A stretch of 64,000 nt of DNA from Candidatus Poribacteria bacterium. Its GTDB lineage: Bacteria > Poribacteria > WGA-4E > WGA-3G. The stretch spans positions 3,008,001 through 3,072,000 of the forward strand of contig OZ242029.1 in the NCBI GenBank assembly GCA_965205015.1. The letters run 5' to 3'. This document shows, piece by piece, positions 11,133-63,592 of this stretch (the stretch's first letter is position 1; the number at the start of each line of letters is the position of its first letter). The notes under the pieces were generated by a model. That model saw only the letters and a list, made by a program, of their open reading frames with translations, ran no database searches and was not told the origin of the DNA. A program made the position numbers and the translations under genes.

Positions 11133-11221
11133 TTTTTAATTTTTCCTTGCGGTTCGGTGAGGTGAGTTGGTTGAATGCGCTTATTTTCCGTATATCCGCC
11201 TGCGCCGTTGTTGCAGGCTGC
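11133..11221 (-). repeat. Element L copy 1; occupies the predicted clpB 5' UTR
   Basis: GCAGCCTGC-AACAACGGC-GCAGGCGGATATACGGAAA...CCGAACCGCAAGGAAAAATTAAAAA-ATG. Confidence 0.85.
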
Positions 11222-11232
11222 GCGTTAACGTA

Positions 11233-11247
11233 GCAAGATTTATGCCA
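11233..11247 (-). promoter_or_regulatory. Sigma54 (-24/-12) promoter upstream of clpB
   Basis: Minus strand TGGCATAAATCTTGC matches TGGCAY-N5-TTGC; three TTGGCA motifs lie upstream (11267-11305). Confidence 0.7.
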
Positions 11248-11330
11248 TTTTAACCACTAAGCCATTTTGGCATCCAACGTGCAAAATTGGCAGGAACAAT
11301 TGGCACATTTTCGTCTGGTGTTGGCGGGTG

Positions 11331-12995
11331 TTAGTTATCCGAAAGGGGTTCTGTCACGACAAGTTCCTGGTTCGCTGCGAGGTTTTCCAACGTTTGCACA
11401 ACGCCGCTCTGCCAATGAATCTGAAGTTTATCCACAACGGTCCGCTCCCCAAGCCCAAAGCGTACCCTCGGATCGTTGCTACTGAGATAACTGTATCCTC
11501 GACGGACTTCCCGCGTCTGGGATTCAGTACCGAGCGTCACTGTAACACGCGTCCCTATGCCATCACGATTGCTGCGTATGCCGATCAATTTGAGACGCAG
11601 ATAGTTGTTGGAGGTGCGATTCTCATTTCGGAGGAGCGTCACTTTGGCATTCAACTGTGTGATGAGAAGGTCTGTGTCACCGTCGTTGTCGTAGTCGCCG
11701 AAAAGGGTCCCACGGCTGACGGCATCCCGACCTTTAAATTGCCTCTCGACAAACGTGCCATCGTCTTGGTTCCAATAGAGCTGATTGGGTTGTTTGTATG
11801 AGAGGACATCTGTGGTCCGCTCAACATTCGGGAAAATATGACCATTCGCGACAAAAATATCAAGGTGGCCATTGTTATCGGGGTCGAAGAATCCGGTTCC
11901 GAACCCCAAGAAGAGATAACTTTCTTCACCGAGCCGCGCCTTGTAACTGACATCGGAGAAAGTCCCGTCCCCGTTATTCCGATAGAGGGTGTTTGTCTCG
12001 TAAGAGAAGTTAGTGACGAAGATATCAAGAAATCCATCGCTGTTGTAGTCCCCGGCGTCGACACCCATACCGGCTTGGGCTATGCCGTCCGCGCTGTAGG
12101 CGCAACCTGTGAGAATAGCGATTTCGGCAAACGTGCCATCGCCTTTATTATAGAAAAGATAATTTGGCGTGTCATCGTTGGCGACGTAAATGTCGGGATT
12201 GCCATCGACATCAAAGTCTGCGGCAACAACACCTAATCCCTTGCCAAGAAACATGCCCCCCGGATCCCGAATATTGGCGGCATCTGTCGTATCGGTAAAG
12301 GTGCCATCGCCGTTGTTTCGATAGAGTCTATCGGGTGCCCCTTCAAAGTGCTTCGGGTGACAATAACCACGCACTTTCTCGGTGGCATTGAACGCCGGAT
12401 CTTCTAAACAGATAGGCGCGGATCCGTCTAATCTATAGTTGACGTAGTTAACGACGTAGAGATCGAGATAACTATCGCTGTCGTAATCGAAAAAAGTCGC
12501 GCTACTACTCCAACGGGTATCGCCGACGCCTGCTTGAGCGGTAATATCCGTGAATGTCCCGTCGCCGTTATTATGATACAGCCGGTTCGCACCGAAATTG
12601 GTTACATAAATGTCCACGTAACCGTCATTGTTGACATCTCCGCAGGCAACGCCGTGTCCATAACTCCCTTGATTGTTGACTTTAGCAGACGTAGTAATAT
12701 CCGTGAAAGTACCATCGCCGTTGTTTCGGAAAAGCGCACTTGGAGCGGCACTATTGACGAGGTAAAGATCGAGGTTACCATCATTATCATAATCGAGGAA
12801 TGCCCCGCCTGCCCCGAGGGTCTCAGGCAGATGAAACGCCCCTGTCGCACCGTTGGCGTGCGTAAATCGGATACCGGCACTATCGGTAACCTCTGTGAAA
12901 TGGGTAGGGGATTCTGCTGATAGCGCGGGAAACGGAATGAGGGAAAGGAACAAATGGAGCGCAGTCAAGAGTGTCCATAAATTAAAAACTTTCAT
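11331..12995 (-). CDS. CRTAC1-family FG-GAP/VCBS repeat protein with ASPIC/UnbV domain, secreted
   Basis: Signal peptide, repeated DYDNDG..D.YV.N and LYRNNGDGTF.D motifs, C-terminal SNRDGIG.RV...GYLSS...FGLG. Confidence 0.92.
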   Translation of the reverse strand: MKVFNLWTLLTALHLFLSLIPFPALSAESPTHFTEVTDSAGIRFTHANGATGAFHLPETLGAGGAFLDYDNDGNLDLYLVNSAAPSALFRNNGDGTFTDITTSAKVNNQGSYGHGVACGDVNNDGYVDIYVTNFGANRLYHNNGDGTFTDITAQAGVGDTRWSSSATFFDYDSDSYLDLYVVNYVNYRLDGSAPICLEDPAFNATEKVRGYCHPKHFEGAPDRLYRNNGDGTFTDTTDAANIRDPGGMFLGKGLGVVAADFDVDGNPDIYVANDDTPNYLFYNKGDGTFAEIAILTGCAYSADGIAQAGMGVDAGDYNSDGFLDIFVTNFSYETNTLYRNNGDGTFSDVSYKARLGEESYLFLGFGTGFFDPDNNGHLDIFVANGHIFPNVERTTDVLSYKQPNQLYWNQDDGTFVERQFKGRDAVSRGTLFGDYDNDGDTDLLITQLNAKVTLLRNENRTSNNYLRLKLIGIRSNRDGIGTRVTVTLGTESQTREVRRGYSYLSSNDPRVRFGLGERTVVDKLQIHWQSGVVQTLENLAANQELVVTEPLSDN

Positions 12996-18038: not shown

Positions 18039-21000
18039 ATGAAACATATCAGATCCTTCGTTCTCGTTTTCTTAACAGTCATCACACTTGGGTGTATTGG
18101 GACGGCAGCTGCGCAAGAGAACCTTGCACAACAGGCGTATGCGATCTTTCAACAGAACTGCCTCAGATGCCATGGTGAGCATGGTAACTTCACAGAGGCA
18201 TTCGTCATCCAGCCCTCATCTCCACAGACATTGGTTCAATCAGGTGTGGTCGTCCCAGGGGAACCCCTGGAATCCGTGGTCTATACGCGGCTCCTTGAGG
18301 CTGATCTCGCAAAACGGATGCCTCTCAGACAACCTGCACTCTCCCCACAAGCGATTCTGACGATTGGTAATTGGATCCTTGCAGGCGCGCCGAGTTGGGA
18401 AGTTCAACGCGATGACTTTATTACGACTGATACGATGCTCACTACCATGGAAAAGCATCTCGGAACGCTGGACCCCTTTGACCGTCCCTCAGCACGCTAT
18501 TTTACGACCACACATCTCTATAACGCTGGTGAAGGTTCAGAACCCCTCCGTGCTGCTGAGATTGCCGTCTCAAAGTTGGTGAACAGTCTCTCGTGGAGTT
18601 TCGATATCGTCAAGCCGCTGCCGGTTGACACACAACGGACGATCTTCTATATCGACTTACGCGATTATGAATGGGATGTCCGAGACGTATGGACGCAGAT
18701 TGAAGCCGTGTATCCCTATACTATTGAGTTTGATGCCGCAACACATGCCGGTCTACATAAAAAACTGGTGGAGCTCCGGCGAGAGATGGAATGTAAGGTG
18801 CCGTTCGTACAAGCGGATTGGTTTCTGGCGACGGCTTCGCTACCGCCCTTGTATCATGACATTCTCGGCCTGCCGGAGACGGATCGGCAGTTGGAGCGGG
18901 AACTGGGTATAGATGTTGAACAGAATCTGCAGCGGGCACCGGGGCGGAGCGTCTGGCGTGCGGGAACGAACGCTTCGATAGTATCGGAGAACAACCGCGT
19001 CGTAGAGCGACACAAGTCTCGATATGGTGCGTATTGGAAAAGTTACGATTTTGCGGGCAATGTGGGTAGGCAGAATATCTTCAACTATCCGTTGTCTTTC
19101 AGACAGGATGGGGGTGAGATTATCTTCAATCTTCCGAATGGGTTACAGGCGTATTATATCTCGGATGGGTCAGGGAATCGGATAGACGAGGCACCGCCTG
19201 AGATTGTACCTAACCCGATTGCGACGGATAAGATCGTGCGGAATGGCATCTCTTGTATCGGTTGCCACACCGAGGGTATGAAGACGTTTAAAGATGAGGT
19301 TCGGGCAGTAATAACAGAGACGGCGAACCCTACTTATGATAGGGATCAAGCCTTGCGCTTATATGTGGAAGCGGCTGTGATGGATCGTTATGTTGAGCAG
19401 GATACCGAACATTATAGAACAGCACTTGAAGCGACGGGGGACACGTTTGGGGGTATTGTGGAGCCTGTGCATCGTTTCTACGAGGCGTTTCAAGGTGCGT
19501 TGGATGCGGGACATGCTGCGGCTGCCCTCGGCATGGAGACGGAAGTGTTCCTTGAAAAGATCGGTAATGAGCCAAGTTTACAGTCCTTAGGATTGACGGG
19601 ATTGCTGAGTGGTGGGAGTGTGAAGCGTGATGTATGGGAGTCTAACTTTTCGGATGTGGTTGCGTGTGTGTATAGTGATGAGTGTGCAGAACAACTTCCG
19701 CCCCCACTTCCACCGTCTGATGATCTAATTCCCGATGTGAACCTGCGGGCGGCGATTGCGGAGACATTGGGAATACCCTCGGGCACTTCAATCAAGCCGG
19801 AGGATTTAGTGCGATTGACGAGACTCGTCGCTGATGAGCAAGGGATAACCGACTTAAGGGGACTTGAATATGCGGAACGCCTTGAACGGATTGAATTGCG
19901 ACGCAACGAGATTTCGGACCTCTCCCCGATCGCCGAGTTGATACGACTGAATAACATCAAGTTGCGAGGGAATAGGATTAAAGATGTGTCGCCGCTTGCG
20001 GGCTTAATTAATGTGGATTGGTTAGGACTTGAAGAGAACCAAATCACTGATTTATCACCCCTGCAGGGGTTAAAGAAGTTGAACGGGATCGGGATTTCGG
20101 GGAACCCGGTATCAGACGTGTCGTCGCTGGTGGGTCTTATCAGTCTTGAACGGATAGACGCGTGGCGGACCCCTATTTCGGATTTCTCTGCTTTAGCGAA
20201 ACTTCCAAGGCTCCGATGGATAGAACTCGGCAACGATAGAGCCATCTCAAAGGTTCCTTCCCTAAAGGGATTAAAAGCACTCCGACGCTTGGAGATCCGA
20301 GGCTGCAACGTCTCCGACCTTTCCGCGCTCACGGAATTGAGAACATTGCAATGGCTCAGTCTCGTCGATAACACGATCTCGGATGTATCGCCGTTGGCAC
20401 AGTTAACGAGGTTGGAGCATCTCAACCTTGATGCCAATCTCATCTCCGATGTGAAGCCACTTGCAGCGTTAACAAGATTGGAAGTGCTTTACCTTGAAAA
20501 TAACGCCATCTCCGACGTATCGTCGCTTGCAGGGTTCAAAAACTTGGATCGACTCGACCTTCGGAATAATGCTATCTCTGACTTCTCGTCATTGGAAGGC
20601 TTACCCGATAAGACATTCGTTCGAATGGATGGCAATCCGGGGTTCCCTTCAGGCGGTCCGAAGATAACGGGTCCTTGGTTGTGGGCGATAGTCCCCGGGA
20701 CACGGCTTGATGACAGGACAGATTTCCTATCACGAGCGACAAGCGGTGCTGCCACAGAAATAAAGGTATCGACAAACGGTGCGAAGGAAGGGAAGGCTGT
20801 TGGAAAGCGTAAATGGGCATTGCATTCAATCTCGGCGACCGATTCGGATAACATCAACCGAATGACAGCGGCACTCGGTTGGGGAACACGAGAGGAGATA
20901 TACGATCATATCGTCTACGGATCGGTTATCTTGGAGGCTCCAAAAGAACAGCAGACACAGATGCTCGTCGGCTCTGATGATGCCGTCAAAGTCTGGCTCA

Positions 21001-21932
21001 ATGGTGAATTGGTGCATTCGGCACTCGTTGCGCGCGGGGCAGGCGATTATCAAGACTTCTTCCCTGTTACCTTGAAACAGGGGAAAAATGCGTTGTTAGT
21101 CGCCCTCGATAACCGCGGGCACGGAGGGTTCAGCGGATTTTTTGGGTTTGCCCCCGACGCAAAATATACCGTGTTCCGTCCGAGCCTGAATTTCGTTTTT
21201 CAGAGGGATACGACTCCGATAGCCGTCGGAGACAGTTTTACTGTTAATCTGAACGTCGAAAACGTTACCGATGTGGGAGGCTGGCAAGCCGACCTGACCT
21301 TCGATCCGAAGGTGCTAACAGCACGTAGTGTCACCGAAGGCGATTTCCTAAAGCAGGATGAAGGCGAAACTTTCTTCCAAAAAGGCACTATCAAGAATCA
21401 GGTTGGTAAGATCACGGGCATTAAGGCGGCACGACTGACACAGAAGCCTGTGAGAGGACACGGCACCCTCTTGTCTATTACCTTTAGGGCACTCCGAAAT
21501 GGGGAATCAAAATTGACGCTCCAAAACTTTCAGGTTGGCACACGGAGAGGCGAGAAAACCCGTTCTATCCCACCGGAGATTACCATCGTTGTTGGAAACT
21601 CCGCGCCTGCAGCACCTACAGCACACGGCATTCCACCGGATCGGACACAACTCCTTGTAAACTATCCAAATCCGTTCAACCCAGAGACGTGGATACCCTA
21701 TCAACTCTCGGAACCCGCGCACGTCACAGTGCGTATCTATGCAACAAGTGGTGTCTTGGTTCGGAGGTTAGGGCTCGGACATCAACCTGCGGGGTATTAT
21801 ACGAACAGAAGCCGTGCGGCGTATTGGGATGGGAAAAACGCTGTGGGTGAGTCAGTTGCGAGCGGTGTCTATTTCTATACGCTCACTGCTGGCGATTTCA
21901 CGGCTACTGGCAAAATGTTGATACGGAAGTAA
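18039..21932 (+). CDS. Secreted multidomain protein: cytochrome c (2x CxxCH) + LRR + beta-sandwich + cohesin + FlgD-Ig/T9SS-like tail
   Basis: CLRCH with distal RMP, CIGCH, LRR block, GSDDAVKVWLNG, cohesin-like VGDSFTVNLNVENVTDVGGWQADLTFDPKVL...GTLLSITF, NYPNPFNPETW. Confidence 0.88.
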   Translation: MKHIRSFVLVFLTVITLGCIGTAAAQENLAQQAYAIFQQNCLRCHGEHGNFTEAFVIQPSSPQTLVQSGVVVPGEPLESVVYTRLLEADLAKRMPLRQPALSPQAILTIGNWILAGAPSWEVQRDDFITTDTMLTTMEKHLGTLDPFDRPSARYFTTTHLYNAGEGSEPLRAAEIAVSKLVNSLSWSFDIVKPLPVDTQRTIFYIDLRDYEWDVRDVWTQIEAVYPYTIEFDAATHAGLHKKLVELRREMECKVPFVQADWFLATASLPPLYHDILGLPETDRQLERELGIDVEQNLQRAPGRSVWRAGTNASIVSENNRVVERHKSRYGAYWKSYDFAGNVGRQNIFNYPLSFRQDGGEIIFNLPNGLQAYYISDGSGNRIDEAPPEIVPNPIATDKIVRNGISCIGCHTEGMKTFKDEVRAVITETANPTYDRDQALRLYVEAAVMDRYVEQDTEHYRTALEATGDTFGGIVEPVHRFYEAFQGALDAGHAAAALGMETEVFLEKIGNEPSLQSLGLTGLLSGGSVKRDVWESNFSDVVACVYSDECAEQLPPPLPPSDDLIPDVNLRAAIAETLGIPSGTSIKPEDLVRLTRLVADEQGITDLRGLEYAERLERIELRRNEISDLSPIAELIRLNNIKLRGNRIKDVSPLAGLINVDWLGLEENQITDLSPLQGLKKLNGIGISGNPVSDVSSLVGLISLERIDAWRTPISDFSALAKLPRLRWIELGNDRAISKVPSLKGLKALRRLEIRGCNVSDLSALTELRTLQWLSLVDNTISDVSPLAQLTRLEHLNLDANLISDVKPLAALTRLEVLYLENNAISDVSSLAGFKNLDRLDLRNNAISDFSSLEGLPDKTFVRMDGNPGFPSGGPKITGPWLWAIVPGTRLDDRTDFLSRATSGAATEIKVSTNGAKEGKAVGKRKWALHSISATDSDNINRMTAALGWGTREEIYDHIVYGSVILEAPKEQQTQMLVGSDDAVKVWLNGELVHSALVARGAGDYQDFFPVTLKQGKNALLVALDNRGHGGFSGFFGFAPDAKYTVFRPSLNFVFQRDTTPIAVGDSFTVNLNVENVTDVGGWQADLTFDPKVLTARSVTEGDFLKQDEGETFFQKGTIKNQVGKITGIKAARLTQKPVRGHGTLLSITFRALRNGESKLTLQNFQVGTRRGEKTRSIPPEITIVVGNSAPAAPTAHGIPPDRTQLLVNYPNPFNPETWIPYQLSEPAHVTVRIYATSGVLVRRLGLGHQPAGYYTNRSRAAYWDGKNAVGESVASGVYFYTLTAGDFTATGKMLIRK

Positions 21933-21962
21933 GGGTTGGGGAACCCAGCCCCTACGTGCTGA

Positions 21963-22328
21963 TTACTGATTGCTATAAAAACCGAGGAAAGCAATATCTC
22001 GTAAGCCCCGGAAAAGTCGTCGTCGGACTTTGAAACGGCTCTTTGCCCAACTTTCGATATATTTTACGGCATCACGCGGAACGAGCTGCGTAAAACGACA
22101 CGGCTTCCCAATGAATAGCGGCGGACCCCATTGAAATAGATGGAGCCCAAAACGGAGTTGCTTGCGTAACGCTTTTGGTAAGTGCTGGACAAACGCATCA
22201 ATCACGATGATTGGAATGTCCAATGTGGTATCTTCTGAAACGCCTACCATATACGTGCATACGGATTTGAGGATATCGTGTTCAACCTCGGTGAAAAAAT
22301 AGGTGGCTTTTGAAGTCGTTCTAAACAT
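21963..22328 (-). CDS. Small hypothetical protein, gluconate 2-dehydrogenase subunit 3-like
   Basis: RFTQL.P.....Y...W..S....RR.LF.GLR.IA.LGFYS pattern. Confidence 0.6.
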   Translation of the reverse strand: MFRTTSKATYFFTEVEHDILKSVCTYMVGVSEDTTLDIPIIVIDAFVQHLPKALRKQLRFGLHLFQWGPPLFIGKPCRFTQLVPRDAVKYIESWAKSRFKVRRRLFRGLRDIAFLGFYSNQ

Positions 22329-22411
22329 CAGTTTGATAGTCCTGCATTAGCGTTAGCACGTAATGAAATTAGGTTCTCCTTAAATGGCATAATTTGTCTT
22401 TGCTTTACATT

Positions 22412-22486
22412 TGGAGTGCGGATGTGAAGGAATGCACTTGAGCGTTCAGACGCCCGTTGTTTCTCCGCAAGGTATCTTAAAAAAAA
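22412..22486 (+). repeat. Element L, degenerate copy, antisense to both neighbours; overlaps the stop of 22477..23376
   Basis: TGGAGTGCGGATGTGAAGG...TCTCCGCAAGGTATCTTAAAAAAAA. Confidence 0.65.
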
Positions 22487-23376
22487 GATTCGCATAATTC
22501 TCGCGCTTCTACCACCGGTTCCACTTCACAGTGCCGAATTTCCAACACCTTCAAGATATCCGATGGGAGTTGTTCAAAGAGTGTGTCCCACTCCAAGTCC
22601 CCGGTCCCCGGTGGGTGATATGCCTCAAGTCCTTGTAGGTCGTGGAGATTCACGCCGACGAGGTGTTCTGCATAACGATCGAGCCACGCATCTGCCCAGC
22701 ACACGCCGAGTCTTTCCTGCAGCGCGGCATGTCCTATGTCGTGCCAATACCGCATTGGACTGCCATAAAACGCCTCAAAGAACAACCCAACCTCGTCAAA
22801 ATTCGGGATTTGGTGGTAGTGTGGACGATTCTCAATGGCGATACAAAGTTCCATCTTCAAGGCATACTCGTTGAGTGCATCAAGACTCCGTAACACTGCA
22901 TCCTGATGTTTCGTTTCCTTACGCTTTCGCCACTCTGTGGCTTCGGTCACTTTTTGGCCGAAGGCTTCAAACTCGCGCTCGCCGTAATTGTAGAGGTCCC
23001 GCATCAGATAGGACCTGTTGTAGGTGTCAACTTCGCCGAGATGAAGGACGACAATTGGCACCTCCAATTCAACAGCGAGTTCCATCGTTTGGACGGTACG
23101 CCGGACAGCCTCCAGTCGCTCGTCTATATTGAGACTCGAAAGTAAAATTTTATCCTGTTCCGCCTCTGCTTGCGACGTTCCGGGAAGGATGGGACAGAAG
23201 TTGTGGATCGAACAGGGCGGGTTTTGGCGGAGATACGGCTTGAGCTGCTCTACCTGATCCGGTGTGAGATGTCTGCTGAGTTCGAGCGTTTCAAAGCCAA
23301 GATTTTTGAGAGCATCGAACAGCGCTGCACCGTCCTGTTGCTTCAAGGCGTTCCACAGTGTTGAAATCGCTAACAT
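22477..23376 (-). CDS. Sugar phosphate isomerase/epimerase (xylose isomerase-like TIM barrel)
   Basis: SIHNFCP, VVLHLG, IENR, WHDIGH, NLHD, H.PPG.G. Confidence 0.85.
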   Translation of the reverse strand: MLAISTLWNALKQQDGAALFDALKNLGFETLELSRHLTPDQVEQLKPYLRQNPPCSIHNFCPILPGTSQAEAEQDKILLSSLNIDERLEAVRRTVQTMELAVELEVPIVVLHLGEVDTYNRSYLMRDLYNYGEREFEAFGQKVTEATEWRKRKETKHQDAVLRSLDALNEYALKMELCIAIENRPHYHQIPNFDEVGLFFEAFYGSPMRYWHDIGHAALQERLGVCWADAWLDRYAEHLVGVNLHDLQGLEAYHPPGTGDLEWDTLFEQLPSDILKVLEIRHCEVEPVVEARELCESFF

Positions 23377-23476
23377 TCTTTTAATTATACCTTGCGGATA
23401 AGTGAAGCCTGTTTGGGCTTTGATGGTTTCCGTGTTCGAGCCGCCTGCTCCGTTGTCGCAGGCTGCATTTTTGGTA
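23377..23476 (-). repeat. Element L copy
   Basis: TACCAAAAATGCAGCCTGC-GACAACGGA-GCAGGCGGCTCGAACACGGAAACCATCAAAG...CTTATCCGCAAGGTATAATTAAAAGA-ATG. Confidence 0.85.
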
Positions 23477-23510
23477 AAGAGTCGTGAGTAAAACTCACTC
23501 TTACAAACTC

Positions 23511-24131
23511 CTAAAGTCCTGATTCAGACGATTCTACAATAACTTTTCGTCCTTCAATTTTCAACCGACCTTGTGCGAACCATTTGATAACTTCCGGGTA
23601 GAGTTTATGCTCCTCAACCTGAATGCGGTTGTGTAAACTCTCCTCATCGTCCGTATCCAAAACGGGCACAGCCGACTGGGCAATAATGGGACCTGAATCC
23701 ACATCCTCATCGACAAAATGAACGGTGACACCGGCGATCTTCACACCGTATGCCAATGTATCAGCAACGGGATGCGCGCCCGGAAATGCTGGTAAAAGCG
23801 TTGGATGAACGTTGATAATCCGGTTCCGGTATTTTTGCACAAAGGGCGGTTGGAACAACTTCATAAAGCCCGCGAGGACTATTAATTCAACGGCATAGTG
23901 CTCAATGACCCTTGAAATCTCTGCGTCAAAATTGAGGCGGCTTTCATGATCCCGCACTCTAACAACGTGTGTTGGTATACCCGCACGCTTTGCGCGTGTG
24001 AGTGCGTAAGCCTTGCGCCGATCACTGAGGACAACTGCGATGTTTATACCACTTGTCTCGTCTTGATGTAGCTGCTCAATCAGGGTTTGCAGATTGGTCC
24101 CACTCCCTGAAACGAGGACTGCGATCTTCAA
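23511..24131 (-). CDS. purN: Phosphoribosylglycinamide formyltransferase
   Basis: AVLVSGSGTNLQ, LAGFM, INVHPTLLPAFPG, GVTVHFVDE..DSGPII.Q; TTG start at 24131 with AAAGGA RBS. Confidence 0.96.
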   Translation of the reverse strand: MKIAVLVSGSGTNLQTLIEQLHQDETSGINIAVVLSDRRKAYALTRAKRAGIPTHVVRVRDHESRLNFDAEISRVIEHYAVELIVLAGFMKLFQPPFVQKYRNRIINVHPTLLPAFPGAHPVADTLAYGVKIAGVTVHFVDEDVDSGPIIAQSAVPVLDTDDEESLHNRIQVEEHKLYPEVIKWFAQGRLKIEGRKVIVESSESGL

Positions 24132-24141
24132 TATTAATCCT

Positions 24142-25956: not shown

Positions 25957-26546
25957 TATTTTTGCTGGAGATAGGTTGTGAGTAACCGTTTTGGCGGCTC
26001 GTGTTGAATCACTTCAAAGGAAATTAATTTTTCACCGTTCAGTTCTTGTGATTTCTTCTGTAGGGGCGAGGTGACCTCGCCCCTACTCCCAAACCTACTG
26101 CTGGGGGATTGGTAAAGCGTCGCCCCCACCATCGTAAAAACGGCGAAGGTCAGTACAAATATGTAAACTGGACTGCGCGTCCGAATATTGTAGCGGAGTT
26201 TGTCAGCGAACATTGAGCCGTGTCGCGCCCATCCAAGCGATACCCCGATGAACCGTGTGGCATGGGACCAAAGCGAGTCGTATTGTCTCTGGTATTTCGT
26301 TGTGTCCGATACGCGCGCCATGACGCTGCTCAAAAAGTCATCAGAGACTTCGATCTCACCGCCTCGGCGTAGGAAATCGTCGGTTTGCTGCAACCGCTGG
26401 ACCTGATTGGTACAAGTCGCACACTTTTTAAGGTGCTGTCGGATGAGATGGCGTTTCCATACTGGCAATTCTTTATCAATATAAGCTGACAGTTCGTCCC
26501 GGCTCGCAAGCTGCGCTTCACATGTCATCTGTTTATTTTTTTTCAT
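25956..26546 (-). CDS. Zinc-binding anti-sigma factor (zf-HC2) with TM helix
   Basis: LSAYIDKEL...HLKKCATC (HxxxCxxC), TM helix; follows the ECF sigma gene. Confidence 0.85.
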   Translation of the reverse strand: MKKNKQMTCEAQLASRDELSAYIDKELPVWKRHLIRQHLKKCATCTNQVQRLQQTDDFLRRGGEIEVSDDFLSSVMARVSDTTKYQRQYDSLWSHATRFIGVSLGWARHGSMFADKLRYNIRTRSPVYIFVLTFAVFTMVGATLYQSPSSRFGSRGEVTSPLQKKSQELNGEKLISFEVIQHEPPKRLLTTYLQQK

Positions 26547-27135: not shown

Positions 27136-27224
27136 TTTTTTAATTTACCTTGCGAATAAGCGTCGGGCTTTATTTTAACGGGTTTCGTGTTCGAGTTCGG
27201 TTGTTGCAAGCTGCGTTTTTGGTA
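27136..27224 (-). repeat. Element L copy (3' arm of the 5' hairpin missing)
   Basis: TACCAAAAACGCAGCTTGCAACAACCGAACTCGAACACGAAA...CTTATTCGCAAGGTAAATTAAAAAA-ATG. Confidence 0.8.
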
Positions 27225-27232
27225 CGAATCTT

Positions 27233-27829: not shown

Positions 27830-27950
27830 TTTTTAATTTTACCTTGCGGATAAGGAACGTGGGTTAAGACTTTGACGTTCTCGTGTTCGAGTTGCTTGCT
27901 TGTTTTTGCTTGGGTGTTTTTGCGTATTGTTGCAAGCTGGGTTCTTGGTA
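27830..27950 (-). repeat. Element L copy with enlarged hairpin loop
   Basis: GCTTGC-[AACAATACGCAAAAACACCCAAGCAAAAACAA]-GCAAGC...CTCGAACACG...TCAAAG...CTTATCCGCAAGGTAAAATTAAAAA-ATG. Confidence 0.85.
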
Positions 27951-27973
27951 CTACTTTTTCACAACAGATATTT

Positions 27974-28873: not shown

Positions 28874-28880
28874 AGGTATC

Positions 28881-28910
28881 ATGATACCATAAAGAGGCAT
28901 CTTTAGGCAA
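28881..28910 (-). promoter_or_regulatory. Sigma70 promoter placed for a leaderless transcript
   Basis: TTGCCT-18 bp-(TGn)TATCAT-7 nt-ATG. Confidence 0.55.
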
Positions 28911-34869: not shown

Positions 34870-35888
34870 AAATAAGAGAGGTTGTTGTAACAGGTCAGAA
34901 CCAAGTGGCGCTGCAGACTGCCGATATAGACGCATCGGTGCTCGCTGCCAACGAATTGCTGATAGACACAGAATACACCTTTATCAGTAGTGGCACAGAA
35001 CTCGCGAATTATACCGGCAGAGAGCCGAAAGTTTTCCAGAAAGGGGAATGGTGTGAGTATCCGTGGCGTTCTGGTTACGCGAATGTCGGCATTGTGCGTG
35101 AAGTGGGTGCTGGCGTTACCCGCGCAGCCCCTGGTGATCGGGTTTTCACTTATGGACGACACGCGTCTACGATTCGCTACTCACAAGATCGATTGGTTGC
35201 CCCTATTAAAGAAACGGTGGATCCGGCTGTCGTTGCGGCATCACGAATGGCAGGCGTTGCGATGACAGCGATTATTGTGGGAGAAATTGGAACCCATCCA
35301 TGGGTCGTCGTTTTCGGCTTAGGGCTTGTCGGAAACTTGGCATCCCAGATGTTCCAGATTCACGGCTGCCGTGTTATCGGGGTCGACCCGGTAGCGGAGA
35401 GACGGGAACTCGCCCAGCGGTGTGGGATTGGTCATACCGTCGGCGGCGATGCGGACGAGGCACAAGCGCAGGTTGAGGAGATAACGGGGGGTGAACTTGG
35501 GAATATTACGGTCGATGCTGTAGGGCATAGTGGTGTCGTTATGCAAGCACTTCGCGCCACCGCCAGCCACGGACAACTCATCATCCTCGGTTCCCCGCGT
35601 GTTGAAGTCCAAGGGAACCTGACGGATCTGCTCTCCGAAACACATCTGCGATGGATTACCATCCGTGGGGCATTGGAGTGGTGCGTGCCGATGTATCCGG
35701 ACATCGGGAATAGAACCTCTCAATGGAGCAAACAGCAAACTATCTTTGACTGGATGGCACGCGGGGAATTGCACGTTGACCCCTTAATCTCTCATCGTCT
35801 CAAACCGGAACAGATTAAGCAGGCTTACGATGGTCTCCTCAACGAACCGAATGTGTATACAGGTGTTGTTTTAGATTGGAATTTTTAA
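34866..35888 (+). CDS. MDR-superfamily (zinc-binding alcohol dehydrogenase-like) oxidoreductase
   Basis: ISSGTEL, GY.NVG.V.EVG, GLGLVG Rossmann motif, ISHR. Confidence 0.88.
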   Translation: MKIREVVVTGQNQVALQTADIDASVLAANELLIDTEYTFISSGTELANYTGREPKVFQKGEWCEYPWRSGYANVGIVREVGAGVTRAAPGDRVFTYGRHASTIRYSQDRLVAPIKETVDPAVVAASRMAGVAMTAIIVGEIGTHPWVVVFGLGLVGNLASQMFQIHGCRVIGVDPVAERRELAQRCGIGHTVGGDADEAQAQVEEITGGELGNITVDAVGHSGVVMQALRATASHGQLIILGSPRVEVQGNLTDLLSETHLRWITIRGALEWCVPMYPDIGNRTSQWSKQQTIFDWMARGELHVDPLISHRLKPEQIKQAYDGLLNEPNVYTGVVLDWNF

Positions 35889-35979
35889 TTATACCTTGCG
35901 GATCAATGGCGTGGTTTGGGGCTTTCGTGTTTTTTGTGTTCGAGTCGTCCTCCACTTCGTTACGGGCTTGGTGTTTGGT
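35881..35979 (-). repeat. Element L copy, antisense; overlaps the stop of 34866..35888
   Basis: AAGCCCGTAACGAAGTGGAGGACGACTCGAACAC...GATCCGCAAGGTATAATTAAAAAT. Confidence 0.85.
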
Positions 35980-38782: not shown

Positions 38783-38795
38783 TTTTTATGATTCC

Positions 38796-38894
38796 TTTTT
38801 TTTATTTACCTTGCGGTTAAACAGAGTGGGTTTGGACTTTGATGTGTCTTTCTTATATCCGCTCTCCACTACGTTACGAGCTATACGCTTTTGG
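38796..38894 (-). repeat. Element L copy, upstream of a separate AAGGA RBS
   Basis: TAGCTC-GTAACGTAGTGGA-GAGCGGATATAAGAAAGACACATCAAAG...TTTAACCGCAAGGTAAATAAAAAA. Confidence 0.85.
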
Positions 38895-46199: not shown

Positions 46200-46228
46200 T
46201 TGACAACATGCGATATTTCAACTATAAT
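46200..46228 (+). promoter_or_regulatory. Consensus sigma70 promoter placed for a leaderless transcript
   Basis: TTGACA-17 bp-TATAAT-6 nt-ATG(46235); no SD. Confidence 0.8.
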
Positions 46229-46234
46229 TAACGC

Positions 46235-49435: not shown

Positions 49436-49629
49436 AGAAATCCGCAGAAATCCGCAGAAATACGCAGAAACACCCAAGCAAAGACACCAAGCAAAGACAC
49501 CAAGCAAATACCCCTATCAATACGCAGAAATACCCAAGCAAAAACACTTCGATTCCTGACGCTTGATCTCTACGGAAAAAAACGTGAAACTATCAACCTA
49601 CCTGACCGAACCACAATGTATAATTAAAG
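49436..49629 (+). repeat. Tandemly expanded (T/C)CGCAGAAA / CACCAAGCAAA module followed by a degenerate element L
   Basis: TCCGCAGAAA TCCGCAGAAA TACGCAGAAA CACCCAAGCAAAGACACCAAGCAAAGACACCAAGC...CTACGGAAAA...CCTGACCGAACCACAATGTATAATTAAAG. Confidence 0.7.
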
Positions 49630-50948
49630 TCTGTAGCATCCTTCTCGTTGTCTTAGTGACCGGGTGCCAAGATGATACGGCGGTTCTCAAAAAGAGTGAA
49701 GAACTTCTGAACGCCGGAACCCCACAAGCAGCAGTGGAAGCACTGGAGGTTTTTATCGAAACGGCACCTGAGGATCCGAGGGCACGGCTGTTATTGGGAA
49801 AAGCCTACAATGACTTGGGGCGTTACACCGACGCCGTTATCGAGCTACAAAAGGCGTCACAACTTTATGCTGCACAACCCGAAGAGCGGATTGCGGCGCG
49901 ACTGGAATTGGCACGTACCTATTTAAGATTCGGTGATAGAAGTTCCGCCTTTCGTGTGCTCCGACTCGTTCAGCGGAGTACGCTGGATCCTGAGGTTTTG
50001 CGCGAAATCATCGAACTCGTGGGAGACAGTTATCATACAAGGCAGTTGACCCGTGGGGATTCAGATAACTATTCACCCACCTTCTCACCGGACGGCACAC
50101 AAATTGCCTTCGCCTCCTTTCGCCTCGACAACGGCGAACTCTATTTAATGGACTTAAACGGACGTATCCAACGCCGTGTAACCTTCACAACGGATTTCAA
50201 CGATAGTTCACCCGCATTCCTCACAACCCCGAACTATCTGTTTTATAGTAGCGAACCGAAATCATCGCGCGAAGTTAAAGTTGTCATCCAAAGCAGCGGT
50301 TCCACGCCGATTTACGCCGGCTTCCATGTAACGCATATTCATAGCAAAATAACGCGAACCGTTTTGCCTGTGAGTTTCGGTGCCCGCGTGCCTCGTAGGT
50401 CACCTGCCGGAAATCAGGTTGTTTATGAATCCAACGTGGATGGAAACCTGGAATTATATCTCCTCGATTTGGCAGGACTCGATCTGGCAGGACTCACACC
50501 AGAAGATGTTGCGCCGAAACGTATTACCTTTAACGAAACCGATGACGGGAGCCCGGCATTCTTCCCGGACGGAAAACGCATCATATTTGTCTCCTCTCGA
50601 AATGAACGAAATCAACTTTATACCGTAGACATTGATGGGAAAAACGAAAAGCATTTCAATCCAAATCGCTATGGGTGTTATAACCCGACGGTGTCGCCGG
50701 ACGGAAAAACGATTGCGTATGTTTCGGCGAGGGACGGTGATTGGGAGATTTATCTCATTGATGCGGATGGTAAAAATGAGCGGCGGATCACCAGCGACAT
50801 CGGTAGGTCTATTCAACCCGCCTTTTCACCTGATGGACGCTACCTCGCGTATGTTTCCGACAGGAGTGATACGTTCCACATCTATCTGATGTCTCTTGAT
50901 AAACCTGTCACGCGTCAGGATTTAGCCAAACGTCTTTTTAACTATTAA
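49563..50948 (+). CDS. TPR + PD40 (TolB-like beta-propeller) lipoprotein; start uncertain
   Basis: LVTGC lipobox, TPRs, repeated P.FSPDG..IAF.S.R.G..EIY. Confidence 0.88.
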   Translation: MISTEKNVKLSTYLTEPQCIIKVCSILLVVLVTGCQDDTAVLKKSEELLNAGTPQAAVEALEVFIETAPEDPRARLLLGKAYNDLGRYTDAVIELQKASQLYAAQPEERIAARLELARTYLRFGDRSSAFRVLRLVQRSTLDPEVLREIIELVGDSYHTRQLTRGDSDNYSPTFSPDGTQIAFASFRLDNGELYLMDLNGRIQRRVTFTTDFNDSSPAFLTTPNYLFYSSEPKSSREVKVVIQSSGSTPIYAGFHVTHIHSKITRTVLPVSFGARVPRRSPAGNQVVYESNVDGNLELYLLDLAGLDLAGLTPEDVAPKRITFNETDDGSPAFFPDGKRIIFVSSRNERNQLYTVDIDGKNEKHFNPNRYGCYNPTVSPDGKTIAYVSARDGDWEIYLIDADGKNERRITSDIGRSIQPAFSPDGRYLAYVSDRSDTFHIYLMSLDKPVTRQDLAKRLFNY

Positions 50949-52659: not shown

Positions 52660-52688
52660 TTGACATAAGCACACCCATCAGGTATAAT
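52660..52688 (+). promoter_or_regulatory. Consensus sigma70 promoter
   Basis: TTGACA-17 bp-TATAAT. Confidence 0.8.
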
Positions 52689-52714
52689 TAATATTACAGA
52701 GACAACATATTCGT

Positions 52715-52743
52715 TCACTGACCCGCAAGGAGTAATTAAAAAT
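52715..52743 (+). repeat. Element L, 3' end only
   Basis: CACTGACCCGCAAGGAGTAATTAAAAAT-TTG(start). Confidence 0.6.
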
Positions 52744-54276
52744 TTGAGGTTTTATCATCTACGCGGCTTTGTGTTTGTATGCATGGCGGCGATACTTCTT
52801 AATTTCGGCTTACAAGCAGCGACACCAGCGGACGCTGCGGACAAAACACAACGCACATTCGAGAACATGCTAAACTATCCGCAAGAGCATTGGTATAGTC
52901 TTACCTTGATGAACACCAAGATCGGCTATATGCACACGTCACACGGGCGAGGCTACCTCGCCCCTACGAAAACTGAGTATCAGGGAAAACAGGTCGCTCG
53001 GAATAAAACCGATATTGTTATGAACTTTAAGGCACTTGGGACTGACATAACAGTTGAAATTACCCGCGTTGAATCCATCGGTCCCGACTTAATGCCACTT
53101 CATTTCCTCTCGACCTCTAATGAATCTGGTTTAAAACAGATAGAAGGGCGGGTGATAGATGGCATCGCTCACGTTAAAACAACGCTCAACGGTGAAACGA
53201 CGGAGTCAAAAATTCCGGTGCCACCAGATACTGTGTCTGAGTATACAGGCGTTTCCTCACTGTTAACCCAGAAAGGACTTAAAACAGGCGATAAGCAGAC
53301 CTTTCACGTGTTCGTCTTCGATCTCTTAAAGCCTGTGAAAACGGAGCTTGAGGTTTTAGGAGAAGAGACTCTAACCTATCAGTCAGAGGAGAAGCGGGTC
53401 TACGTTCTGAAACAGACGATGCACATGATGAATGGTATTACCGCAAAACTGTGGATTGACCCTGACGGCGTAAACTATCGAACAGAGGTGCCGTTGATGG
53501 GGCTTTCCATGGTAACGACGAAAACCGACAAGGAAACTGCCCTTGAGGGGACTGAAGAGGTTGACGTTGTTTTAAAAACGCGTATCCTTCCATCTGGCAG
53601 GCTCCCGATTCCAACAGCAAAACACCTTGAGGCAGCAGTGAAACTCCCAACAGGGACCATCGCCGAAGTTGTTATGTCCACCCCTCGACAGAAACTTGAG
53701 ACAAACACTGCACGCGCGGGTAAACTCTCTATTCAGGTTCCATCAATTGTCGCTGAGGACTGTCCGAATCTCCCTATTCGGAATGCAGAAGGTGAATTCT
53801 TAACTGCAAGTGCCTATATCCAAGCCGATCATCCTGACATTCAGGCGCAGGCTGCGGATATCTTAGAAAACGAGGTTAATTCATGGCATGCGGCGGAAAA
53901 ATTATGTCGGTGGGTTTATGCCTCTATTCAGGATAAAAAGATGAGTGGGGGGTTTGCGTCGTCATTAACAGCCCTACAATCGCTCTCGGGAGATTGCACG
54001 GAACATACGGTGTTATTCATCGCGCTGGCGCGTGCTGCTGGCATTCCTGCACGAATCTGTTCCGGTATTGTGTTCGCAAAGGATGCGTTTTACTACCATT
54101 TCTGGCCCGAAGTCTACGTCGGTAAATGGGTACAAATGGACCCAACGTTGGACCAGACCATCGCTGATGCGACCCACATTCAACTCGGTGGAAGTATCTT
54201 GGAGTCGAACAATCTTATGGAATACGCAGCAGATGTTTTCCATACGCTCAATCAACTTGAAATTACGATCTATTAG
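52744..54276 (+). CDS. Secreted transglutaminase-like domain protein
   Basis: Signal peptide; GDCTEH..LF.AL.RA.GIPAR, YHFWPEVY.G.W..MDPT (Cys-His-Asp triad). Confidence 0.9.
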   Translation: MRFYHLRGFVFVCMAAILLNFGLQAATPADAADKTQRTFENMLNYPQEHWYSLTLMNTKIGYMHTSHGRGYLAPTKTEYQGKQVARNKTDIVMNFKALGTDITVEITRVESIGPDLMPLHFLSTSNESGLKQIEGRVIDGIAHVKTTLNGETTESKIPVPPDTVSEYTGVSSLLTQKGLKTGDKQTFHVFVFDLLKPVKTELEVLGEETLTYQSEEKRVYVLKQTMHMMNGITAKLWIDPDGVNYRTEVPLMGLSMVTTKTDKETALEGTEEVDVVLKTRILPSGRLPIPTAKHLEAAVKLPTGTIAEVVMSTPRQKLETNTARAGKLSIQVPSIVAEDCPNLPIRNAEGEFLTASAYIQADHPDIQAQAADILENEVNSWHAAEKLCRWVYASIQDKKMSGGFASSLTALQSLSGDCTEHTVLFIALARAAGIPARICSGIVFAKDAFYYHFWPEVYVGKWVQMDPTLDQTIADATHIQLGGSILESNNLMEYAADVFHTLNQLEITIY

Positions 54277-54443
54277 TTGTCAGTTATCGGTTATCAGTTA
54301 TCAGTCACAAGAGAGGTTTGGTAACACGCATCGTTCTAAATGGGGATTGATACCCAACGAAGATAAGATTGTTAAAAAACCCCTCTTAACTGACGACTGA
54401 CGCCTCTAAAAACTGATGACTGACGACTGACAACTGATAACTA
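54274..54443. repeat. Heptamer-arm palindromic element (family C) filling the intergenic gap
   Basis: TAGTTGTCAGTTATCGGTTATCAGTTATCAG...CTGATGACTGACGACTGACAACTGATAACTA; its first TAG is the upstream stop codon. Confidence 0.85.
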
Positions 54444-61700: not shown

Positions 61701-61702
61701 TC

Positions 61703-62920
61703 TCACGACGAGGTTTCTGACTTTAACTCGGCGACGTTCCGGCGGATTTTAATCGCCGCCTTAATAATATCCTCTATATCCTCTTCACTCGCCATCAACA
61801 CGTTTTGACTTAAGGAAAGACCTGTTTGGCATATCTTTTCAGTTTCGGGACACTGCACATCGTCATAATTGAGATTTTGACCGAAAAGGTTAGAGGCGAG
61901 AAAGGATGCCCGGTACATAGGCGTCGTATACCAATATCCCATCGGTATCCCTTCGGCGCGCATTGCCTGGAGAAACGTCTCCCGTGAGATGCCTTCAAAT
62001 TCCTCCGAATCAAAGATCGCCTTATAGCCGTGGCATCCGCCGCGCGTGGCACGCGGGTCGAGCGGTGTGACTATGATGCCCGGGATCTCGCCGAGCCAAC
62101 CATCTAACCATCGCATGTTCTTATGCCGATAGTTGGTTTCCGCTTCGAGTCGAGTCAAACGGGAAAGGAGTAATCCTGCCTGCCACTCCGTCATTCGGAA
62201 GTTCCCGCCAAAGGGTTCCGCCTCTCCAAACTCGGCATCGGGTAGCGTGCGCCCACAATTGTGCAATGCCCATGCCCGTTCGTAGAGTTCCCGATCATTT
62301 ACAAGGACGATGCCGCCTTCGCCAGCACATAGGTTCTTAGATGATTGGAAACTGAAGCATCCGAAATGTCCCCAACTGCCGACCCCTCGTCCGCGCCATT
62401 CCGCGCCGTGCGCCTGCGCGCAATCCTCGACAATCCCCAGGTTATGCCGATTCGCGATGTCAATCAGCGCGTCCATATCTGCGGGATAGCCGGCGATATG
62501 AACCGGTAAAATGACTTTCGTTTTCTCGGTTATAGCGGCTTCAACCTTTGAAGGATCCAACAGGAAGCTGTCCGGGGCAGTATCTACAAAGACCGGGGTG
62601 GCGTGGGTCATTAAAATCGCGACGACTGTGGCTTGGAAAGTATAGGGTGTGGTGATAACTTCATCGCCTGGGCAAACGCCAGCGGCTTTCAGGGCGATAT
62701 AGAGTGCCGAGGTGCCGCTATTGACGCAAACGCCATAGGTCGCACTTTGGAATTCAGCGAACTGTTGTGCAAACTCAGGAACTTTCGGTCCACCGACCCC
62801 CCATTGTCCACTCCTATAAATGGTTTCAAATGCTTCAAGGTCTGCTGGATCAAACGTGGGCCATGCAGGGAATCCAGCGGTTCGGACAGGTTCGCCTCCG
62901 TTTATTGCTAATGTTGCCAT
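61703..62920 (-). CDS. DegT/DnrJ/EryC1/StrS aminotransferase
   Basis: LAINGG.P, NSGTSAL, PVH.AG, EDCAQAHGA, FSFQSSKNL.AGEGG, NFRMTEWQA. Confidence 0.95.
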   Translation of the reverse strand: MATLAINGGEPVRTAGFPAWPTFDPADLEAFETIYRSGQWGVGGPKVPEFAQQFAEFQSATYGVCVNSGTSALYIALKAAGVCPGDEVITTPYTFQATVVAILMTHATPVFVDTAPDSFLLDPSKVEAAITEKTKVILPVHIAGYPADMDALIDIANRHNLGIVEDCAQAHGAEWRGRGVGSWGHFGCFSFQSSKNLCAGEGGIVLVNDRELYERAWALHNCGRTLPDAEFGEAEPFGGNFRMTEWQAGLLLSRLTRLEAETNYRHKNMRWLDGWLGEIPGIIVTPLDPRATRGGCHGYKAIFDSEEFEGISRETFLQAMRAEGIPMGYWYTTPMYRASFLASNLFGQNLNYDDVQCPETEKICQTGLSLSQNVLMASEEDIEDIIKAAIKIRRNVAELKSETSS

Positions 62921-62942
62921 CTCTTCATCCCCCTTCGGTTTC

Positions 62943-63497
62943 CTAAGGTAATTTCTCTATGTAATCCTGCAAATCTGGGAATCCCGTTCTATGAATTATT
63001 TCCTGTAAGCGGTGCTCCACATGTCCAGACTCGACTTCAGCGATCAATGCCTTTAGGACTTCCAGTGCTTTTCTTTCCAATTCAGCGTCAATCACACCCT
63101 TCTGGACTGCTTCTTCAAATTCGTCTTCGTCCTGAATTTCGTAGGTGCCATCAGGATTTATCCAAAGGTCTAGGAACAGATCCGTTATTTCGAAACGATT
63201 CAGTTTCCCGTTTGCATCCACGCTCCGTTTGACGGGTTTCAGCACATCACAGTAATAGCCGGTCCACTCGTTTTCCAGATTATAGACCTTGCCGACATCA
63301 TACCATAAACCTGTAAATACAAACCAGATTGCGGCGAAGTTATCTCCTAAAACCGTCTCACCGTTCTGAACTATGGGTGAGGACGGTTTAACGCGTTGAG
63401 ACGTAACAATAACCGCGTCGTCGAGGTAAAGTAATTCTTGTTGAAAGTGGTTGACTCGATTGGGGGGTCTTTTATAGGTAAGTGTTACTGTTTCCAT
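62943..63497 (-). CDS. DUF402 domain protein
   Basis: WF.F...WYD, GYYCDV..P, DLFLDLW..PDG....DEDEFEEA. Confidence 0.9.
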   Translation of the reverse strand: METVTLTYKRPPNRVNHFQQELLYLDDAVIVTSQRVKPSSPIVQNGETVLGDNFAAIWFVFTGLWYDVGKVYNLENEWTGYYCDVLKPVKRSVDANGKLNRFEITDLFLDLWINPDGTYEIQDEDEFEEAVQKGVIDAELERKALEVLKALIAEVESGHVEHRLQEIIHRTGFPDLQDYIEKLP

Positions 63498-63592
63498 TCT
63501 TTAATTTTACCTTGCGGATAAGTGACGAGATTTGTGCTTTGACGGTTGTCGTGTTCGAGCCGCCCTCCACTTCGTTACGGGCTGCGTACTTG
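63498..63592 (-). repeat. Element L copy
   Basis: GCAGCCC-GTAACGAAGTGGA-GGGCGGCTCGAACACGACAACCGTCAAAG...CACTTATCCGCAAGGTAAAATTAAAGA-ATG. Confidence 0.88.

Follow-up and report, generated by a model that had tools for sequence, protein, structure and literature searches.

Element L, a dispersed mosaic repeat joined to start codons in Poribacteria, as a candidate promoter for leaderless mRNAs

The stretch analysed here, called the window throughout, comprises 64,000 nucleotides (nt) of contig OZ242029.1 of a Candidatus Poribacteria bacterium, and in it a unit of about 100 nt, which we call element L, stands ten times at gene boundaries and in several copies runs into the start codon of unrelated genes. 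What does such a repeat contribute to the genes that it adjoins, and how did it come to lie exactly at their start codons? Element L is a real, abundant and clade-restricted repeat family, and it is not a known Rfam family, a known MITE (miniature inverted-repeat transposable element) or a known repetitive extragenic palindrome (REP) linked to a REP-associated tyrosine transposase (RAYT). We observed a defined anatomy, a high abundance, a preferred orientation, a fixed spacing to the start codon, a constrained base profile at the 3' end and, at the same ATG, the replacement of leaders that carry a Shine-Dalgarno (SD) sequence. From the sequence, we lean towards the reading that element L is a mosaic repeat with a REP-like 5' hairpin, the 3' end of which would act as a promoter for leaderless mRNAs.

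Copies, abundance and anatomy of element L

Searching the window with the core CCGCAAGGWAWAWWWAAA and allowing up to two mismatches, we obtained 10 matches against 0.10 expected, a number that none of 100 dinucleotide-preserving shuffles reached. A profile hidden Markov model (HMM) was trained on 66 copies, 6 from the window and 60 from other genomes; at E<=1 it returned exactly the ten copies in the window and nothing further, including four that were outside its training set (27830, 22412, 49565 and 52715, named by their first positions in the sequence-only reading that preceded this work). That reading had located all ten copies correctly, strands included. Its sub-motif CTCGAACACG, by itself, was not significant in the window (9 matches against 5.2 expected, with 8 of 100 shuffles reaching 9) and is a marker of one subfamily only. 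The window is collinear, in inverted orientation, with the chromosome of the related genome G002 over its full length, with genes mostly 82-92% identical in nucleotides, and the state of the G002 site is given with several of the copies below (ORF, open reading frame; ECF, extracytoplasmic function).

11133..11228, minus strand: full copy with GCAG head, 6-bp hairpin GCCTGC/GCAGGC, GGATATACGG-type middle and core CCGCAAGG followed by AAAAAT and TAAAAA (HMM E 4.7e-16). It adjoins the ATG of clpB (ORF 8550-11132); in G002 the hairpin part is gone (model 34-99) and the same ATG is adjoined.
22409..22487, plus strand: 5' arm and loop swapped for another repeat module (AAATGGCATAATTTG... type; HMM model 25-98, E 1.1e-11). 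It is antisense, between two minus-strand genes, and the TIM-barrel gene takes its TAA stop (22477-22479) from the TTAAAAA tail of this copy; the orthologous copy in G002 has its full length.
23377..23476, minus strand: full copy of the CTCGAACACG subfamily (HMM E 5.6e-17), with TATAAT, 7 nt and the ATG of a xylose-isomerase-like TIM-barrel gene (22477-23376). The G002 copy has decayed over its 5' two thirds and keeps its core next to the same ATG.
27136..27224, minus strand: copy without the 3' arm of the hairpin, core TCGCAAGG followed by TAAATT, AAAAAA and ATG (HMM E 2.3e-07). It leads into an ECF sigma factor gene (26533-27135) and occupies the entire gap after the TPR gene; the site is also filled in G002.
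27830..27952, minus strand: full copy, the hairpin loop of which encloses a 23-nt module, ending TAAAAT, TAAAAA and ATG. The ATG is that of the TPR gene (27233-27829).
35881..35979, minus strand: full copy with no co-oriented gene downstream (HMM E 1.4e-18). It stands antisense to the plus-strand genes on its two sides, with its tail reaching over the stop codon of a zinc-dehydrogenase gene (34866-35888), and the site is filled at the same place in G002.
38783..38894, minus strand: full copy followed by a partial second 3' unit (AAGGAATCATAAAAA; HMM E 3.6e-19). The second unit adjoins the ATG of a PhyH-family dioxygenase gene (37985-38782); in G002 there is one core, 12 nt before the same ATG.
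49567..49633, plus strand: 3' two thirds with a degenerate core (CCACAATG followed by TATAAT), upstream of a PD40/TPR gene (HMM model 36-96, E 2.1e-05).
52694..52746, plus strand: 3' end only (CCCGCAAGG AGTAAT TAAAAAT), ending at a TTG start (HMM E 0.011). The gene is transglutaminase-like (52744-54276), and the copy lies inside its leader, about 30 nt downstream of a canonical promoter.
63498..63593, minus strand: full copy of the CTCGAACACG subfamily, ending TAAAAT, TAAAGA and ATG (HMM E 1.1e-20). A DUF402 gene (62943-63497) starts at this ATG; other modules have taken the place of the upstream part in G002, where a core adjoins the same ATG.

The two antisense copies, 22412 and 35881, both end on the stop codon of a convergent gene, and the TTAAAAA tail, reversed, contains TAA.

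The statements made here at genome scale derive from relatives of the window genome. Two arbitrary stretches of 400 kb were searched with the profile HMM:

G002, 400 kb: 66 matches, of which 45 full length, 14 with the 3' part only and 7 with the 5' part only.
G005, 400 kb: 40 matches, of which 26 full length, 14 with the 3' part only and 0 with the 5' part only.

Scaled up, these counts correspond to about 600-900 copies per genome of 5.5-5.9 Mb, consistent with the 10 copies in the 64 kb of the window. With a covariance model, no fewer than 150 full-length matches came from each of five complete genomes (the initial pass yielded about 1900-2200 candidates in each), and in a sample of 150 genomes of the phylum it matched in 62 and in none of the other 88. 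When the core was scanned against one genome per prokaryotic species, at least 129 loci were found; among the 80 matches listed, 71 were titled Poribacteria. The remaining nine comprised two element-like loci titled 'uncultured bacterium' (L004, a full element, and L076, a core next to an ATG only) and seven bare chance matches. Among the genomes searched, element L is thus confined to part of the Poribacteria. It had been suspected not to belong to a described Rfam family, and this was confirmed by the lack of any match at gathering score, both in the window and in 40 kb of G002 (L148, L149) that hold 12 copies. The copies are old: within a genome the median pairwise identity is 0.65-0.66, and only one pair, of tandem neighbours, reaches 0.9.

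In alignments of 66 and 45 copies, the order from the 5' side is an A-rich run, a four-base head ending in AG, a GC-rich hairpin, GG and a subfamily-specific block (GGATATACGG, GGATTTAAGG or GACTCGAACACG); towards the 3' side there follow the loose blocks TCAAAG and AAAC, the near-invariant CCGCAAGG, a hexamer (T/A)A(N)AAT and TAAAA(A). Saturated variable stretches of fixed length separate the conserved blocks. The hairpin occurs in two or three types, GCCTGC-loop-GCAGGC, GCCC-GTAAYGNARTGGA-GGGC and GTCCAAAAC-AAC-GTTTTGGAC. Of 45 full-length copies taken without selection, 31 have the head GTAG and all have a head with AG at its end; in the seven window copies that keep the head, it is never GTAG (GCAG in four, then CCAG, CAAG and ATAG). 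The ends, A-rich plus (G)TAG on the 5' side and GGTAAAATTAAAAA on the 3' side, are non-complementary in both alignments; terminal inverted repeats were not found there, in agreement with the description of the element as lacking both these and an ORF.

Covariation of the 5' stem was measured on the 45 full-length matches from the 400 kb of G002, which had not been chosen for pairing. In the 4-bp stem 94.4% of cells pair against 86.8 +/- 0.9 in shuffles (0/500), 20 cells are changed on both sides against 6.2 in shuffles (0/500), and pairing falls to 31-63% when the partner is slid by 1-3 columns. The covariation proposed for this stem therefore stands on unselected copies, though it comes mostly from two subfamilies (in one pair U-A 27, C-G 14) and so represents few independent events. 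For alignment A2 and model R1 the rows had been pre-chosen for a perfect stem, which biases their pairing figures, and alignment A3 was relied on.

Two further folds were rejected. The 3' fold TTA(T)CC-GCAA-GG-TAA, read as a GNRA hairpin, found no support past its two invariant pairs: whichever register is taken, the pairs outside the CC/GG are formed in only 4-56% of the 108 copies. A hairpin in the middle, between the 5' hairpin and the core, was discarded as a family feature, with a mean z of -0.25 on per-copy folding and only 13 of 66 copies below -1; some subfamilies do pair there (AGGAAC/GTTCCT, CGG..AGG/CCT..CCG) and the CTCGAACAC subfamily is unpaired.

The build of the family is mosaic. 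Short modules are nested inside the loop of the hairpin or follow it immediately, and whole elements also stand in tandem. The G002 stretch of 400 kb holds five head-to-head pairs; pairs of this kind stand in divergent gaps, their 5' ends separated by 12-21 nt.

The junction with start codons and the candidate -10 box

Considering the 103 copies that lie between called ORFs (12 others, with their midpoint inside a called ORF, were dropped from this count), 82 face the start of a co-oriented gene and 21 a convergent gene end (binomial p 1e-9). The element is dispersed, oriented and docked at gene boundaries, as first described. The distance to the gene was examined in the 108 copies that have a 3' end (59 in G002, 40 in G005 and 9 in the window). 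In 47 of them a start codon that opens an ORF of at least 60 codons is found 8-16 nt after the GG of the core; it lies at 11-13 nt in 41 of these 47 and is ATG in 44, and in 30 copies the ATG stands exactly 12 nt after GG. The controls gave 1-9 of 108 at three other offsets and on the opposite strand, and 477 of 5000 for random 9-nt windows. In a set selected by pattern, the start is at 11-13 nt in 51 of 144 copies, 45 of them with ATG. In about nine further copies, among them window copy 38796, a partial second 3' unit itself adjoins the ATG, as read by eye. The six window copies described as running into a start codon all do so, five with ATG 12-13 nt after GG (clpB, TIM barrel, ECF sigma, TPR, DUF402) and one with TTG at 13 nt (transglutaminase). 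By a strict regular expression, core and box stand at the start of about 8% of called genes (23 of 297 in G002, 4 of 54 in the window).

The abutting copies contain only A and T between GG and ATG, with no SD sequence. In the hexamer that follows the core, across the 108 copies, position 2 is A in 100% and position 6 is T in 98-100%, and positions 1, 3 and 5 vary; in the -10 box of sigma-70 promoters, positions 2 and 6 are the most constrained. The core itself stays 95-100% conserved despite the age and divergence of the copies. The window also holds the same layout without the repeat: at 46200-46237 (plus strand) a canonical promoter, TTGACA (46200-46205)-N17-TATAAT, is followed after 6 nt by the ATG of ORF 46235-48469 (744 aa) and is conserved in G002, so that the start of this ORF has a leaderless-type layout independent of element L. 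A second canonical promoter (TTGACA 52660-52665, TATAAT 52683-52688) shares a GGTATAATTAA context with the end of the element. Because of these two promoters, sigma-70-type promoters can be taken to be in use in these bacteria.

The genes without the element provide a comparison. An SD motif (GGAG, GAGG or AGGA) precedes about 55% of called genes, 164 of 297 in G002 and 28 of 54 in the window, with a spacing that peaks at 6-8 nt. The start is ATG in 44 of 47 abutting copies and in 263 of 328 genes of the SD class (Fisher p 0.025). Leaderless initiation prefers AUG, and this modest excess of ATG fits that preference. Among copies that do not abut, 40 have a start 17-89 nt away; of these, 11 were flagged as having SD (about 7 being partial core duplicates by eye) and 9 were flagged as having a second box.

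On the promoter reading the 5' third of element L would be a REP-like unit, composed of an AG-ending head (usually GTAG) and the covarying GC-rich hairpin, which probably is, or formerly was, recognised for spreading and recombination and may also act at the 3' end of the RNA of the upstream gene. The 3' 20-25 nt, CCGCAAGG-(T/A)A(N)AAT-TAAAA(A), would most likely be a promoter independent of a -35 box. Its hexamer would serve as -10 box, with the G two bases ahead at the G position of an extended -10 (TGn), and transcription would start 6 +/- 1 nt after the hexamer, on the A of the adjoining ATG. The docked genes would then give leaderless mRNAs, translated without SD, and if the transcript starts at the start codon the element itself lies outside the mRNA. 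An element further from its gene would produce a short leader, and one that faces a gene end would be an antisense or idle promoter.

Several points weigh against this proposal. No TTGACA-like sequence is found 16-18 nt upstream of the box, where positions -38 to -30 read CAAACCCAC with low to moderate conservation, and canonical promoters in these genomes do have a TTGACA -35. The first base of the hexamer in abutting copies is A in 60% and T in 38%, the opposite of a strong -10. Conservation extends over the whole of the 3' 20 nt, with the TAAAA that separates box and ATG, and is equally high in non-abutting copies; the base profile could reflect descent or a need other than a promoter. The AAGG, 12 nt ahead of the start, might serve as a weak and distant SD; the core of copy 52715, which lies in a leader that follows a canonical promoter, has the form AAGGAG at 11 nt before the TTG start. 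Two aspects of method bear on the counts: gene starts come from a longest-ORF heuristic and not from a gene finder, and the information of the search profile sits mostly in the core, so copies without it are under-detected. Finally, the start of RNA polymerase at the element, the leaderless mRNAs and the mode of spread are all steps that we infer.

The points on AAGG and on copy 52715 lead to the alternative of a portable 5' untranslated leader that acts in translation initiation. Here the promoter would lie upstream or in the 5' half, the hairpin would protect the 5' end of the mRNA, AAGG would be a weak, distant SD and the A-rich tail would recruit the ribosome. An invariant AGG at a fixed 12 nt from the start is what a leader would have, as is a hairpin that covaries like a structure in RNA or single strands, and copy 52715 does stand within a leader. 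A spacing of 12 nt, however, exceeds the 6-8 nt peak of ordinary SD genes, and a second small family (see below) has AGGAG 14 nt before ATG, again the box plus 6 nt. No conserved promoter-like box is present in the 5' half, and copies that have lost the hairpin still adjoin start codons, as at clpB in G002. The GNRA fold and the middle hairpin are unsupported and Rfam gives no match. The promoter is best placed inside the element because the head-to-head pairs, only 12-21 nt apart, leave no room for promoters upstream of them. We judge the leader unlikely, and prefer the -10 reading on account of the geometry and profile of the box, the precedent at 46200-46237, the SD-bearing orthologues described in the next section and the head-to-head pairs. 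Of the original interpretation, the dispersed, oriented, start-docked repeat with a REP-type hairpin was retained, the RNA leader became less likely, and the link with an HUH (Y1) transposase was not found in the five genomes examined.

The lack of a -35 can also be read in another way, in which the copies of element L form an array of sites bound by a single DNA-binding factor of the clade, be it a nucleoid protein, an activator or an alternative sigma. This factor would read CCGCAAGG, the AAAC block and TCAAAG and co-regulate several hundred genes, the -10-like box being only part of the site. Conserved blocks held apart by saturated stretches of fixed length would suit such a factor, as would the conservation of CCGCAAGG beyond what a sigma-70 promoter needs and the restriction to one part of the phylum (62 of 150 genomes). 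Against it, the docked genes are functionally unrelated (clpB, ECF sigma, TPR, dioxygenase, DUF402) and the factor is so far hypothetical. We give this idea a low probability, and it overlaps the promoter reading rather than excluding it.

Two other candidates were tried. An ECF-type or two-box promoter (GGAAC ... CGTT) was rejected, its spacing of about 21 nt by eye being too long. The core as a general promoter motif, outside the element, was rejected as well: of 131 regular-expression matches in 864 kb, about 6 convincing solo cores fell outside profile matches.

Orthologous sites and the mode of spread

The 10 copies of the window compare with 21 in the syntenic stretch of G002, and two sites could be polarised with four further genomes. 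At the TPR gene, the element adjoins the ATG in the window and in G004; G001, G002, G003 and G005 are without it and share a conserved 43-nt spacer ending GGAAAGATTG before the same ATG. Since these four genomes share the GGAAAGATTG spacer, the state with the element is derived, and an SD-like stretch was removed. At gene 4134, the SD AGGACAATT precedes the ATG in the window, G001, G003 and G005; in G002 its place is taken by 44 nt of other DNA plus an element that ends on the ATG, and G004 uses the same ATG behind GAGAGGCATCTT. At both sites the native 5' region was replaced up to a pre-existing start codon. The comparison proposed for such loci thus yielded empty sites at the TPR gene and gene 4134 and, both cases being replacements, no target duplication, a negative that is weak with two polarised filled/empty sites. 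At the TIM-barrel gene, the DUF402 gene and the gene at window 51109, the upstream two thirds are decayed or swapped in one genome and the core stands at the same ATG in both.

Contigs from three sequencing runs of one study, covering window positions 20500-40400, show joints between different repeat copies and extra depth over the repeats. Both are expected because element L is a multi-copy family; none of these contigs cleanly skips an element.

Taking into account this turnover, element L could be a selfish repeat of the type of REPs and bacterial interspersed mosaic elements (BIMEs), or of MITEs, functionless at most sites; placement would reflect tolerance of insertion and the promoter-like end would serve the spreading machinery. 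In line with this are the REP-type head and hairpin, the tandem arrays, nested modules and 5'- or 3'-truncated copies, and the many gains and losses between window and G002. In addition, 21 of the 103 copies point to a gene end, non-abutting copies keep the core as well as abutting ones do, and true RAYT/REP systems are active in these genomes. Tolerance alone, however, would not be expected to remove the SD and to join 44% of copies, at a fixed spacing, to ATGs that were already there, and dead selfish copies should decay evenly, whereas copies as old as these (median identity 0.65) keep 95-100% of the core. No target duplication accompanies either polarised site, and the hairpin flanks none of the 27 Y1 transposase genes found in five genomes. 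We regard a purely selfish repeat as improbable.

A bolder form of the promoter reading can be put forward, which we hold to be possible and rather doubtful. In one Poribacteria clade a REP-like cassette may have converted genes from SD-led to leaderless expression genome-wide, each copy replacing the 5' region up to the ATG with a -35-independent promoter, at about one gene in ten; CCGCAAGG and the upstream blocks would be the landing site of a clade-specific factor (a sigma, an activator or an HUH enzyme), giving it one handle on several hundred promoters.

If the promoter reading is true, a single dispersed repeat would supply hundreds of unrelated genes with their promoter and determine how their translation is initiated, in an uncultured phylum of sponge symbionts. 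Genes would move between SD-led and leaderless expression by replacement of a cassette, with both states visible in sister genomes. It would also provide a rule for annotating starts and promoters in Poribacteria and a compact, sequence-defined module of promoter plus start, and would extend the REP/BIME idea from short repeats with a hairpin to a composite unit that carries a regulatory payload.

Related systems and accompanying repeats

Promoters of leaderless genes, with a -10 box a few bases before the start codon, occur in Actinobacteria and Deinococcus-Thermus. Element L resembles them in its -10-type hexamer 6 +/- 1 nt before the ATG and the absence of SD, a layout also seen in the window at 46200-46237. 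It differs in that the box ends a repeat of about 100 nt present in hundreds of copies per genome, with an invariant CCGCAAGG in front and no -35; the leaderless status in Poribacteria is, moreover, a prediction from sequence.

According to Nunvar et al. 2010 (PMC2817692), a REP has a GT(A/G)G head and, immediately 3' of it, an imperfect palindrome that is short and GC-rich, and the cognate rayt (Y1 transposase) gene is flanked by two copies of the same REP, inverted. By the test of head and palindrome, the hairpin of element L agrees with the structural definition. As described there (PMC2817692), it has the head, a GC-rich palindrome with a non-complementary middle and a stem kept by complementary changes; high copy number, extragenic position and a clustered, mosaic arrangement are likewise shared with REPs and BIMEs. 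In element L, on the other hand, the hairpin is only the 5' third of an oriented 100-nt unit, and copies face gene starts, not gene ends.

All 27 matches to PF01797 (Y1_Tnp) in five complete genomes were inspected with flanks of 1-1.5 kb. None of the 27 is flanked on both sides by the element L hairpin; element L occurs within these flanks at two (L132, L140), on one side only. Other GTAG palindromes flank Y1_Tnp genes on both sides at L139, L165, L174 and L175. In the window, classic REP palindromes (GTAG head plus GC-rich stem, e.g., of GTAGGCAC... type) were seen at 4095-4115 (plus strand), just after ORF 3484-4095; because related palindromes flank rayt-like genes in relatives, Poribacteria have several genuine REP/RAYT systems.

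Element L is not a MITE in the strict sense, as it has no inverted ends and, in two cases, no target duplication. The Correia elements (CREE) of Neisseria are described in PMC2649163 as having terminal inverted repeats, a site for IHF, processing by RNase III and promoter creation at their end. The likeness is that of a dispersed non-coding element of about 100-150 nt able to create a promoter at its end and to control the neighbouring gene; element L differs in having neither inverted ends nor, in two cases, a visible target duplication, and in carrying the box at one end only, joined to the start codon. By analogy, element L would work most like Correia elements.

The PeSL cassettes of T4-type phages consist of a stem-loop plus a sigma-70-like promoter, the stem-loops being proven terminators, according to Arbiol et al. 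2010 (PMC2839356). They share with element L the small, repeated intergenic cassette of stem-loop and promoter and the exchange of blocks at a site, comparable to the replacements above. They are phage elements, whereas element L is chromosomal, has a hairpin without T-run and would place its promoter at the ATG. Element L is unusual in uniting a place on the chromosome, copies in the hundreds, one oriented end with a putative promoter and direct fusion to start codons. Our literature search returned no link of Poribacteria to such repeats, nor of MITEs to leaderless promoters; leaderless genes and REPs co-occur in general transcriptome maps and in a survey of hot-spring isolates.

A second, shorter module at start codons was noted, made up of the 3' half of the same hairpin loop, (T/C)CCAGGAG(C/G), a -10-like hexamer (AATAGT, CATAAT ...), TAAAAA and ATG, in which the ATG follows AGGAG at a distance of about 14 nt. 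The 400-kb stretch of G002 contains about 8-10 of these modules (L142-L161; g2 198073, 217248, 279606, 310325), and one is also present in G005 (g5 6109).

Within the family, a 21-nt 3' unit (core, box and A-run) is often repeated head-to-tail with the last unit at the ATG (L021, L023, L026, L080, L099; g2 154518, 278625, 291377). A module of about 20 nt (GTTTTTGCTTGGGTGTTTC type) occurs in either orientation, in the loop or right after the hairpin, at window 27890-27915 (minus strand) and at L012, L022, L046-L048 and L094 among others. Modules that replace the 5' part of the element include a GCTGAATGC...GCATTCAGC hairpin unit and AAATGGCATAATTTGTCTTTGCTTTACATT, in a layered mosaic of small repeats.

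At window 37870-37985 (plus strand) an inverted array of TTGGAAG-type heptamers fills a convergent gap (compare locus L185 of G004), and G002 has element L there; in this gap intergenic blocks have been exchanged wholesale between relatives. Runs of short repeats like CTGATAAC / CAGTTATCAG occupy several intergenic gaps (window 54290-54420, minus strand; g2 141270-141310), and one of them arrived with an insertion of element L in G002.

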